Shown here: positions 33,245 through 54,363 of the stretch, in pieces | Layout of the letters: every line of letters starts with the position of its first letter | Position numbering within the stretch: the stretch's first letter is position 1 | DNA from: Candidatus Latescibacterota bacterium | GTDB taxonomy: Bacteria; Latescibacterota; UBA2968 | Length of the DNA: 54,891 nt | Direction of reading: 5' to 3' | Assembly (NCBI GenBank): GCA_022822565.1 | Contig: JAJEAX010000417.1 | Span: forward strand, 1 to 54,891 | Program-made: the position numbers and the translations under genes | Notes under the pieces: generated by a model | Database searches by the model: none | Seen by the model: the letters and a program-made list of their open reading frames with translations, nothing else | Told to the model about the DNA's origin: nothing

Positions 33245-33320
33245 TGGCAGGCCAGGCAGGACTTGAACCCGCAACCGTCGGTTTTGGAGACCGATGCTCT
33301 ACCAGTTGAGCTACTGACCT
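33245..33320 (-). tRNA. tRNA-Trp (anticodon CCA)
   Basis: Hand-folded 76 nt cloverleaf. Acceptor AGGTCAG/CTGGCCT, anticodon loop CTCCAAA, T-loop GTTCAAGTC, encoded CCA end. Confidence 0.9.
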
Positions 33321-33332
33321 ACCCAAAAACAA

Positions 33333-33408
<76 letters not shown>

Positions 33409-33433
33409 GTTGGGCAATCCCCACTTGAGATTC

Positions 33434-33510
33434 TGGAGCGGGAAACGGGACTCGAACCCGCGACCCTCAGCTTGGAAGGCTGACGCTCTGGCCAACTGAG
33501 CTATTCCCGC
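33434..33510 (-). tRNA. tRNA-Gly (anticodon TCC)
   Basis: 77 nt. GCGGGAA acceptor, anticodon stem TCAGC/GCTGA with loop CTTCCAA, GGTTCGAGTCC T-arm, CCA end. Confidence 0.9.
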
Positions 33511-36945: not shown

Positions 36946-36972
36946 CAAAAAAACCGGACTAAAAAGCCCGGT
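36946..36972 (-). terminator. leader terminator T1
   Basis: Minus strand ACCGGGC-TTTTTA-GTCCGGT followed by TTTTTTTG. Confidence 0.5.
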
Positions 36973-37053
36973 TTTGGGAATAACTTTTTAGCGACTTGTT
37001 TAAAGTGGCTGCAATATGCCGCAAATCACCACTCGCCATAGCTGTATTTTGGG

Positions 37054-37082
37054 AATGTAACCAAAACCCTCAACCCTGTCAA
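37054..37082 (-). promoter_or_regulatory. promoter of the PLP-enzyme leader
   Basis: Minus strand TTGACA (37082-37077), 17 nt, TACATT (37059-37054). Confidence 0.4.
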
Positions 37083-37105
37083 CCTCCGCATTGAGCATCT
37101 AATTT

Positions 37106-37150
37106 TATCTGCGCCCATCTGCGCCATCTGCGTCCATCTGCGGATACCTG
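37106..37150 (-). repeat. tandem decamer element, copy A
   Basis: Plus strand TATCTGCGCC CATCTGCGC CATCTGCGTC CATCTGCGGATACCTG, starting 5 nt after the thrC stop. Confidence 0.8.
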
Positions 37151-37154
37151 TCAA

Positions 37155-38519
37155 CTATCGGTTGGCTTCAATCCGGTCGAGAATCGCCTTTTTTACTGCA
37201 TCGATCTCAGGGGGCAACACAACGGGTTCATTGCGGTAATGCGGGCTTACCCCCCATTCCTGTAACTGATCCCGATGATATCCGAGCTTAAACTCACTAA
37301 ACTTCAACCCGTGAGCCGTTGAAATCACGATCACGCGATCGCTTTTCTGAATTACGCCCCTGTCAATCAACTTGAACAATGCCGCGAAAGCCACCCCGGT
37401 GTGCGGGCATGCAAACAAGCCCGTACGGTCGGCACGCGCAGCCGCATCGGCCAATTCTTCTTCGCTGGCTTGTTCTACGACACCGCCGAATATTTTGAGC
37501 GTTTGAATCGCTTTTTCCCGACTCACCGGATTGCCGATCTGGATCGCACTGGCCAATGTCGGCTGTGCCTGAATCGGTTCAAAACGATCAAAATTCTTTT
37601 CAAAACTTCGATAGAGCGGATTGGCCCTATCGGCCTGTGCAACCGCAATGCGCGGCAGTCGGTCAATTAGCCCAAGGGCCTCCATTTCGAGAAAGCCTTT
37701 GCCCAGCGCACTCACATTGCCCAGATTTCCGCCGGGAATCACAATCCAATCGGGCACTTCCCAATCAAATTGCTGTACCAACTCGATGCTGATTGTTTTT
37801 TGCCCCTCCACCCGCAGTGAATTCATCGAATTGGCCAAATAGATATTTTCCTCGTGGCAAATCTCCTGCACCAGCCTCATACATCCATCAAAGTCGGTCT
37901 CCAAACTCAGCACCAGTGCACCATTGGCCAGGGGCTGCAAAAGTTGTGCAGTCGAGATTTTGTCCCTCGGTAAAAAAACCACCGATTGTATGCCCGCCGC
38001 TGCACAATACGCAGCCAATGCCGCCGAGGTGTCCCCAGTAGATGCACACGCAACCGCCGGAATACGCTTCCCTTCAAATAGCATCTGTTTCACCATGGAT
38101 ACCAGCACCGTCATGCCCAAATCTTTGAACGATCCCGTATGGCTATTGCCGCATTGCTTAACCCACAAATCGTCAACGCCAATTTCTCGCCCCAAACGCT
38201 CGGCCCAAAACAGATTGCTACCCCCCTCGTACATCGACACCACATTGTCTTCGTGAACCACGGGGCAGACCAGTTCTTTTTTCCCCCATACAGAACTGCC
38301 ATAAGGCCATTTCGTCGTCATATAACGCTTATCAAATAACCCGCGCCAATAACTGCCCGGCTTGCGTTTGAGCATCTCCATATCGTGCGCCACTTCGAGT
38401 AACCCTCCGCACTTTGGACATGCGTAAATCACATCCGTCAACGCATATCGCCCTTCGCATCCGTGAAAACACCGAAACCAAGCATTGTAAGTTGTATCGT
38501 TCATATTTTCGTTACGCAT
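37155..38519 (-). CDS. thrC: threonine synthase (long form with N-terminal Cys-rich segment)
   Basis: PLP-fold motifs ([12 protein letters not shown]). N-terminal FRCFHGCEG...CPKCGG. Start is the ATG at 38519 or 38504, neither with a clear SD. Confidence 0.9.
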
Positions 38520-48459: not shown

Positions 48460-48500
48460 AAAAAAGCCTCTTAGTCGTCAGTCCTCAACTCCTCGCCTTT

Positions 48501-48560
48501 CATCTGCGTTTATCTGCGTTCATCCCTGCTTACACCCGCAGGGACATGCCTGCGGATACC
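48501..48560 (-). repeat. tandem decamer element, copy B (with palindromic insert)
   Basis: Plus strand CATCTGCGTT TATCTGCGTT CATCCCTGC...GCAGGGACATGCCTGCGGATACC, abutting the batB stop. Confidence 0.75.
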
Positions 48561-54279: not shown

Positions 54280-54329
54280 AAAATTATCCTCTACCTCTCC
54301 TCAGTCTCCACTTCCCTCTCACCTGTATC

Positions 54330-54363
54330 CATCTATGTTCATCTGCGTTCATCTGCGGATGCG
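54330..54363 (-). repeat. tandem decamer element, copy C (overlaps the ackA 3' end)
   Basis: Plus strand CATCTATGTT CATCTGCGTT CATCTGCGGATGCG. The ackA stop at 54339-54341 lies inside it. Confidence 0.75.

Follow-up and report, generated by a model that had tools for sequence, protein, structure and literature searches.

The window analysed here, a stretch of 54,891 nucleotides, belongs to a draft Candidatus Latescibacterota MAG of 4.6 Mb in 433 contigs (genome G000), whose close relatives are likewise named Candidatus Latescibacterota MAGs. It carries three copies (A, B and C) of a short tandem element, all of them flanked by minus-strand genes. The initial annotation had placed the copies at 37106-37150, 48501-48560 and 54330-54363, and each of the three was confirmed at its position. 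On the plus strand they read as (Y)ATCTGCG units repeated every 9-10 nt, with GAT at the end. Pfam agreed with the gene names assigned earlier: a PALP enzyme (threonine synthase-like, thrC) at copy A, a VWA/BatA protein (batB-like) at copy B and the C-terminus of an acetate kinase (ackA) at copy C. The genes downstream of the three copies encode a Cys/Met PLP enzyme, a TPR protein and an ABC_transp_aux protein, respectively. The features of the three sites are as follows.

Copy A, behind thrC:
37106..37142, minus strand: four units in tandem, sense CGCAGATG GA/G/GG ..., with periods of 10, 9 and 10 nt
37143..37145, minus strand: 5' cap, ATC in the sense direction and GAT on the plus strand
37084..37146, minus strand: entire insert of 63 nt (cap, four units and a unique 22-nt tail); of the 21 genomes in the genus, 11 lack it at the orthologous site
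37075..37083, minus strand: distal copy of a 9-bp target duplication, sense GTTGACAGG; empty sites read ..GATAGTTGACAGGGTTGAGGG..
37147..37155, minus strand: proximal counterpart of this 9-bp duplication, beginning with the final base of the thrC stop codon TAG (37155-37157)

Copy B, behind the batB-like gene:
48460..48560, minus strand: whole mosaic spacer of 101 nt between the batB-like (VWA/BatA) gene and the TPR gene
48501..48518, minus strand: two intact units
48524..48549, minus strand: 26-nt hairpin micro-element H1, sense GCATGT-CCCTGC-GGGTGTAA-GCAGGG
48555..48557, minus strand: 5' cap ATC, 3 nt after the batB stop codon TGA (48561-63)
48460..48500, minus strand: purine-rich module (AAAGGCGAGGAGTTGAGGACTGACGACTAAGAGGC T6) bearing the SD of the next gene

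Copy C, behind ackA:
54330..54357, minus strand: three units, the 3'-most decayed (CATAGATG)
54358..54360, minus strand: 5' cap ATC
54280..54329, minus strand: purine-rich tract up to the SD of the ABC_transp_aux gene
54280..54360, minus strand: whole block, in place of a gene of about 1.1 kb that most relatives have

Copy A starts 12 nt past the thrC stop codon. Its tail ends in TGCGGAG, a weak inverted match to the cap (ATCCGCA / TGCGGAG, 6-7 nt), and the distal 9-bp duplication includes the -35 box TTGACA from the promoter of the gene downstream. In copy B, H1 splits the third unit between CGCAG (48550-54) and ATG (48521-23). The ackA reading frame enters copy C and ends at a TGA (54339-41) in the second unit, its last 7 codons being encoded by the repeat.

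Unit, cap and placement of the arrays

The element had been proposed to be dispersed, and the genome-wide pattern search bore this out. It returned 153 tandem matches (overlapping) in G000, which were chained to 128 arrays; 104 of these survived a stricter filter. Since the reversed control pattern gave 0 matches in every genome searched, the tandem pattern lies far beyond chance. Most of the 128 arrays were short, with 64 having two units, 51 three, 10 four and 3 five. The octamer CATCTGCG occurred 278 + 233 times in G000, where a random 8-mer is expected about 70 times per strand.

On the gene-sense strand the consensus is a 5' cap (A)TC followed by units CGCAGATG(G/A)A, which can also be written as (A)TC plus CGCAGAT plus a spacer. 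The spacers between units were GGA (49), GAA (42), other 3-mers (32) and 2-mers (26). A period of 9-10 nt, as noted in the initial annotation, was thus found throughout, with 10 nt in 83% of the spacings and 9 nt in 17%. The motif GGATACC, also counted as part of the consensus there, did not hold up: CATCTGCGGATACC occurs only three times in G000, and conservation upstream of the units is limited to ATC (85-87%). The arrays are polar. Their 5' edge is crisp and their 3' edge decays, and a near-unit matching at 6 of 7 positions followed the array in 37 of 98 cases and preceded it in 5 of 98. These 3' near-units are mainly CACAGAT or TGCAGAT, i.e. CpG transitions. The sense strand of the arrays is 67% purine and 12% T, and the 10-nt unit CGCAGATGGA contains no GGG run.

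Genes in G000 were called with our own heuristic (3,914 genes, 90% coding). The orientation of the arrays relative to genes, first described as fixed, is biased rather than fixed: between co-directional genes 52 arrays were in sense and 14 in antisense (79% sense, p=3e-6), and a further 14 arrays lay between convergent and 12 between divergent genes. Coding sense strands carry a GC skew of +0.059, which confounds contig GC skew as a guide to replication direction for array orientation in the draft G000. Proximity to stop codons was borne out. Out of 64 arrays with a sense upstream gene, 45 overlapped its stop or lay at most 12 nt from it, against 10.2 expected from uniform placement within the same spacers (P<1e-5). 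The stop codon was fused directly to the cap (TGA/TAA+TCCGCAG) in 17 arrays, and in 15 cases an ORF terminated inside the array. Random location and orientation across the genome, which the initial annotation had named as an outcome contrary to its reading, did not occur, and both are non-random. The genes adjoining the arrays are functionally unrelated.

The median spacer between co-directional genes of G000 is 36 nt, and at empty sites the SD lies within a few bases of the stop codon. Since the spacers are this short and the SD follows the stop this closely, the point directly after the stop may be the only neutral one for an insertion. The position and orientation of the arrays would mainly reflect a survival filter. 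In the sense direction the array RNA is predicted to be purine-rich, C-poor and unstructured and should neither terminate nor mis-fold a polycistronic transcript. The antisense RNA would resemble a Rho-loading site, being rich in C and poor in G. Arrays between convergent genes abut the stop of the sense-strand gene (median 10 nt, vs 80 nt on the other side); this is not predicted by pure tolerance and is awkward for a passive reading.

The family is not confined to G000. An exact 21-mer was found in 18 of the 20 other genomes of the genus and, in a first sample, in none of 4 other genera of the family or 16 genomes of the order. The two-unit 18-mer CATCTGCGNNCATCTGCG was searched in 168 genomes of the phylum. 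Within this genus it was found in 19 of 20 genomes, counts per genome ranging from 0 to 135; a genus of another family has it in 19 of 31 genomes, with up to 155 matches, and a genus of a third family in one of two, with essentially none elsewhere among the 168. The other genera have the same cap, unit, spacer variants and stop-codon fusion in different surroundings. The decamers of genus g25 precede a conserved tail of about 60 nt, and G078 has GAAGCGT heptamers in place of GAAGTGT. An identical unit and cap in three families, in lineage-specific contexts, is also awkward for a passive reading and hard to account for without recent horizontal transfer or a conserved recognising factor. A phage origin was rejected, with 0 matches among viral contigs.

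Several of these observations are those expected of a functional cis-element. The arrays would then be multivalent DNA sites, or 3'UTR or intercistronic RNA sites, for a conserved sequence-specific protein that would affect termination, mRNA decay or translational coupling, and the copies would have been recruited to many operons like transcription-factor sites on mobile repeats. The sense bias (52:14), the stop-codon adjacency (45 vs 10.2 expected), the crisp 5' boundary, the abutment of the sense gene's stop even between convergent genes, and the same 8-nt core and ATC cap in three families with otherwise unrelated contexts all argue for it. It is opposed by the functionally unrelated neighbouring genes, by the 9-nt spacings (17%), which break helical phasing, and by the near-identity of units among loci, which points to copying and not to convergent evolution of sites.

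Turnover of the arrays and their neighbouring modules

Six regions were compared over 21 genomes of the genus, or over a five-genome subset. At the thrC site, 10 genomes were filled and 11 had an intact empty site; the filled arrays had 2, 3 or 4 units depending on the genome, and the 9 bp duplicated around the insert are unique sequence. At the site of copy B, nine relatives have an unrelated native spacer of 23 nt with its own stop codon and SD, and other genomes carry different mosaics, one of them without any decamers. At the site of copy C, the gene of about 1.1 kb was lost independently in several lineages, and an array fills the junction in G000 and G009. A further site near the window is empty in G000 and carries 0, 1, 2, 3 or 4 units in relatives, single-unit 'seeds' included, together with ACTGACT heptamer tracts of 2 to about 25 copies. 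Array turnover on contigs C58, C347 and C341 was comparable, and gain or loss of arrays was seen between species whose flanks are 90-97% identical. Modules either insert into the short spacer that separates a stop codon from the following gene or take its place, and the number of units then alters in situ. The unit number probably changes by replication slippage.

The duplications flanking the inserts were 2-5, 8, 9, 9-11, about 19 and 22 nt long, and an exact 8-mer duplication flanked 8 of 92 copies, compared with 2-3 in controls. A uniform target duplication was not found. No donor loci were found for the unique 3' tails of the inserts, which are single-copy in G000.

The change of unit number in situ at orthologous sites and the single-unit seeds at one site would also be expected if each array were a local microsatellite, arisen in place by slippage of a chance seed with no transfer between loci. 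We find this scarcely credible. The same unit and cap recur across three families and over 100 unrelated loci, which already contradicts it, and subfamilies share terminal variants such as ..GACACAGATAAAAGGCAA. Moreover, the reversed control pattern gave 0 matches, and one insertion has a clean empty site and a 9-bp duplication.

The arrays have regular neighbours. A purine-rich continuation towards the next SD had been noted for copies B and C, and it is real and recurrent: purine or heptamer tracts lie 3' of 19 arrays and 5' of one. The heptamers ACTGGGG, ACTGACT and GAAGTGT co-occur with decamers. The commonest 3' partner is a GC hairpin with a GTAG head (GTAGGGGCG-loop-CGCCC, 103 copies); 23 arrays have it within 80 nt on their 3' side and one on its 5' side. 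The order of modules is regular, as in BIME-type mosaics, and runs from the stop codon through the cap and decamers and a purine/heptamer tract or GTAG hairpin to the next gene. A module consists of the (A)TC cap and 1 to 5 or more units, usually followed by one of these partners and then by the SD or promoter. An inverted unit within 160 nt on the 3' side was seen in only 2-4 of 113 arrays, and terminal variants of the inserts, e.g. ..GACACAGATAAAAGGCAA, are common to subfamilies.

That the element is not simply a terminator, as had been stated for copy A, was confirmed. The arrays fold no better than shuffled sequence (z-scores -0.1 to -1.6), and no Rfam family matches the arrays of the window or the relatives' loci; a terminator or structured RNA was ruled out on both grounds.

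The decamers are themselves invaded. All of the approximately 30 array-type copies of the 26-nt hairpin H1 interrupt a decamer unit at one point, after CGCAG and before ATG, and no duplication accompanies them. The hairpin is polymorphic. It is present in copy B of G000 and missing from that array in G002 and G012, present in the thrC array of G013 and not in that of G000, and present in one array of G000 on C58 and not in the relatives' counterpart. H1 can hold a second nested hairpin, and it was not found in the other array-carrying genera. The arrays may thus serve as landing pads for this micro-element. Nostoc reportedly contains very small mobile dispersed repeats (SDRs) of 21-27 nt, said to have been described by Elhai and co-workers in 2008. 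H1 would resemble them in being a tiny hairpin insert without target duplication, at a fixed position in another repeat, polymorphic and able to be nested; its sequence and its host repeat are unrelated to theirs.

These data bear on the functional cis-element introduced above. Species whose flanks are 90-97% identical differ in whether an orthologous site holds an array, copy number runs from 0 to 135 per genome within one genus, the unit number is free to vary from 1 to 5 or more, and 26-nt inserts split units without apparent penalty. Neither constant helical phasing nor conservation at orthologous regulatory regions, both expected of a phased binding array, was found. We regard a functional cis-element as possible but doubtful. 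The initial annotation had suggested a binding array for a DNA- or RNA-binding protein, or an mRNA processing or stability element. Site turnover, unit-number polymorphism, the spread of copy numbers within the genus, insertion signatures, nested invasion and the 17% of nine-nt spacings argue against a conserved phased array, or a processing element, that serves the neighbouring genes, and a trans-acting factor that recognises the unit is still compatible with the data. The annotation had set its proposal against membership of a REP/MITE family. The behaviour that we observed is largely REP/MITE-like, with presence/absence and unit-number polymorphism, insertion signatures and a nested micro-element.

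Candidate mobilising and recognising functions

Two Pfam families, PF01797 (Y1/RAYT) and PF00078 (reverse transcriptase), made up the enzyme profile search. PF01797 had no match in G000 or in seven further members of the genus, among them the array-rich complete genomes G004, G014, G017 and G020. Its matches elsewhere are ordinary IS200/IS605 copies without decamer repeats. A REP-RAYT system was rejected, given that the array-rich closed genomes lack PF01797 and that no RAYT flanked by arrays was found. PF00078 had no match in G000, in the array-rich complete genomes G004, G008 and G017 or in other array-rich genomes, and its absence speaks against retro-insertion of the SINE-like or group II kind. 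In the draft G000 we found no gene, transposase-like or other, flanked by inverted arrays, no repeated ORF near arrays and no parent insertion sequence with matching ends. An element gene 5' of the CATCTGCG strand was considered as well, and the genes there are ordinary housekeeping genes.

Two sequence resemblances were also set aside. Pairing with the 3' end of 16S rRNA involves only GTGATCC (7 nt), which is found in about a quarter of the caps, and was judged coincidental. The likeness of TATCCGCA to a DnaA box, from which it differs at one position, was dropped; TATC is the cap in only 24% of cases.

Another reading is dedicated transposition, in which the array would be the recognised end of a non-autonomous element and the enzyme would be encoded elsewhere. 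This could take the form of SINE-like target-primed reverse transcription from the repeat tail, or of one-ended HUH/rolling-circle transposition from A|TCC. Both versions would fix the 5' end and leave the far end and the duplications variable. The cap end is indeed fixed and the distal end variable and locus-specific, the number of terminal units varies, and the duplications at the flanks differ in length, the one at thrC being 9 bp of unique sequence. The patchy, burst-like phyletic distribution fits too. Against this stand the absence of PF00078 from G000, G004, G008 and G017 and of PF01797 from G000, G004, G014, G017 and G020 (elsewhere it belongs to ordinary IS200/IS605), the housekeeping nature of the genes 5' of the CATCTGCG strand, and the fact that no autonomous copy with array ends was found. 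We consider dedicated transposition quite unlikely.

Origin of the arrays and relation to known repeats

Turnover, burst-like copy numbers, the insertion signature, a nested parasite, unrelated neighbours and irregular phasing together indicate mosaic repeat DNA and not a conserved regulatory array. Our best reading is that the arrays are repeat DNA of the STRR, Xanthomonas-heptamer, BIME or BrickBuilt kind and not a demonstrated regulatory site. On balance, we lean towards the view that they are one module of non-coding, selfish or neutral mosaic intergenic repeats carried by a few Latescibacterota genera. Copies would spread by a non-canonical copy-paste process, e.g. template switching or illegitimate recombination, perhaps with an enzyme. 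The arrays are expected to lengthen intercistronic spacers and 3' UTRs and may in some cases provide a gene with its stop codon and a few residues at the C-terminus. We do not think that the flanking genes are specifically regulated by them.

No mobilising enzyme was found and the flanking duplications are not uniform, and both points count against this reading. A trans-acting recognition factor is its main rival, and we retain it because the unit and cap are identical in three families and because the arrays abut the stop of the sense gene between convergent genes. Put more specifically, the decamer and ATC cap would be the recognition or template sequence of a trans-acting system, either a binding protein or a non-canonical copying enzyme, which would be horizontally mobile among Latescibacterota genera and would add or spread units in a polar manner from the cap end, immediately behind stop codons. 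This specific proposal seems unlikely to us. If it were true, the arrays would not be passive junk: they would record a novel means of DNA writing, or serve as a tunable element between cistrons.

Read as mosaic repeat DNA, the arrays have their closest precedent in the heptamer arrays of Xanthomonas and Nostoc. The dispersed heptamers GGGAATC of Xanthomonas and GGGGA(T/C)T of Nostoc (STRR) differ from one close relative to another, and no function is known for them (Rehm et al. 2015, PMC4692102, where the Calothrix STRR report is cited). Like them (PMC4692102), the decamers are short units arranged head-to-tail at about 100-200 loci per genome, are biased to non-coding DNA between aligned ORFs and under-represented between divergent ORFs, have the purine/G-rich strand in sense and neighbours of all functional classes, and vary extensively in length and sequence among close relatives. 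Unlike the heptamers, the decamer unit is 10 nt long (9 in 17%) and has no G-runs and hence no G-quadruplex. The decamers also have an (A)TC 5' cap and a polar decay gradient, are the specific target of a nested 26-nt hairpin and belong to the phylum Latescibacterota. Their arrays usually have 2-3 units, whereas heptamer arrays have four or more.

The arrays also share features with BIME/REP elements and GTAG-tagged REPs (Di Nocera et al. 2013, PMC3733652). Both are mosaics of short motifs placed after coding regions in unidirectional or convergent spacers, and both are species- or genus-specific (PMC3733652). Such mosaics are probably co-transcribed with their neighbours (PMC3733652), as the arrays may be. 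The GTAG hairpin GTAGGGGCG-loop-CGCCC that accompanies the arrays is of the GTAG-REP type (PMC3733652), and among the modules described here a REP palindrome with a GTAG head fits that neighbour only. Unlike a REP, the decamer array is non-palindromic and unfolded, and no repeat-flanked RAYT was found. As for a MITE, empty-site polymorphism was observed; terminal inverted repeats are rare (2-4 of 113 arrays), and no parent IS was found in the draft G000.

Composite non-coding intergenic repeats with an internal tandem unit of variable number between subunits and a limited host range are known as BOX elements in Streptococcus pneumoniae. The BrickBuilt elements of Porphyromonas gingivalis share with the decamers a composite, intergenic organisation, a variable-number internal tandem unit between subunits and a limited host range (Klein et al. 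2015, PMC4596501). BrickBuilt is a minisatellite-MITE whose brick measures 23 nt; a genome has about 19 copies, which end in inverted repeats and show promoter activity (PMC4596501). In contrast, the decamers have a 10-nt unit and more than 100 copies, inverted ends are rare, and there is no constant leader or tail in this genus.

The initial annotation did not recognise a described repeat family, and no description was found in the literature that we searched. The decamer family is undescribed and, with about 100 arrays in G000, is a new example of the long-known and unexplained short tandem intergenic repeats. Such repeats behind stop codons were reported decades ago as cyanobacterial STRR and later as the Xanthomonas and Nostoc heptamers, and are still unexplained. 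The decamers offer a clean case in an uncultured phylum, with many closed relatives for comparison. Their cap, their polarity gradient, the dated gains and losses, a unit-specific parasite and a unit shared by three families without a reverse transcriptase or RAYT open the origin of such repeats to tests by comparative genomics. In practical terms, the arrays break assemblies and alter the 3' ends of genes, and they could be useful strain markers. The repeats occur at many contig ends of the draft G000.

Hairpins within and beside the decamer units

A small hairpin lies in the window:

48524-48549, minus strand: 26-nt hairpin micro-element, GCATGTCCCTGCGGGTGTAAGCAGGG

The draft genome holding the window, G000, carries about 30 copies of this element (for example on contigs C58, C125 and C315), and these are positioned exclusively between CGCAG and ATG of the decamer unit. 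The 26-nt hairpin lacks a target duplication. Its presence differs between species and it is confined to the window's genus. At the thrC site of the relative G013 (L010) and on G000 contigs C125, C188, C383 and C409, a second small hairpin (..CCCCGTATAAAAACACTACGGGG..) sits within the first, which gives three levels of nesting: the unit, the hairpin and the hairpin inside it.

A family of GC hairpins in G000 also often occurs immediately 3' of decamers. This GTAG-headed family, GTAGGGGCG-(variable loop)-CGCCC(GTC), has 103 copies across the genome (e.g. C58, C211 and C394) with an orientation bias to sense (51:18). None was observed at the window's three array sites, and we did not find a RAYT with GTAG-headed hairpins on its flanks.

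Surroundings of the arrays in the window

Rfam matches in the window include:

33248-33510, minus strand: three clustered tRNA genes (RF00005)
36967-37042, minus strand: SAM_alpha riboswitch (44 bits, gathering score 36, E=1e-6)

The SAM_alpha match is contained in the leader of a Cys/Met PLP gene. It lies shortly downstream of both copy A, the array after the thrC stop codon, and a TTGACA..TACATT promoter, whose -35 box was duplicated by the copy A insertion.

At the ackA end, the site of copy C, most relatives have a gene of ~1.1 kb between ackA and the ABC_transp_aux gene (window 54280-54360; loci L052-L067). This gene was lost in at least four separate ways: it is cleanly deleted in G008 and G020, partly deleted in G005 and G012, and the repeat stands in its place in G000 and G009.

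The spacer near window ~52,900 is empty in G000 (21 nt). Its orthologue in G008 (L057) holds an (ACTGACT)n heptamer tract of ~25 copies, an expansion in one species; relatives have 0-4 copies. Heptamer-bearing mosaics also contain ACTGGGG (L032), which we take to be the reverse complement of cyanobacterial STRR1.

Caps, variant units and arrays of another family

About a quarter of the arrays have GTGATCC in their caps, the exact complement of GGAUCAC at the 16S rRNA 3' end (relatives; ..GGCTGGATCACCTCCTTTCT). We judged this complementarity coincidental, because most caps are without GTGATCC.

A long array of at least 10 copies of a variant unit, AAGGCAGATA, occupies C369:~1-160 of G000 and continues into a normal decamer array at the contig end. 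Since many decamer arrays in G000 are positioned at contig ends, the family is probably both a cause of assembly breaks and under-counted.

In g25, a genus of another Latescibacterota family, the arrays precede a conserved tail of ~60 nt (..CGCAGAATAGTAGAAACAAGACGATCC..GAATCGTTCAAGT..TTCAGGATTGCTATA; L253, L256, L262, L264, L270), about 20-40 nt upstream of the next start codon. An Rfam search of these arrays with their tail gave no match. The same genus also has array pairs, both head-to-head and tail-to-tail (L244, L269, L270).
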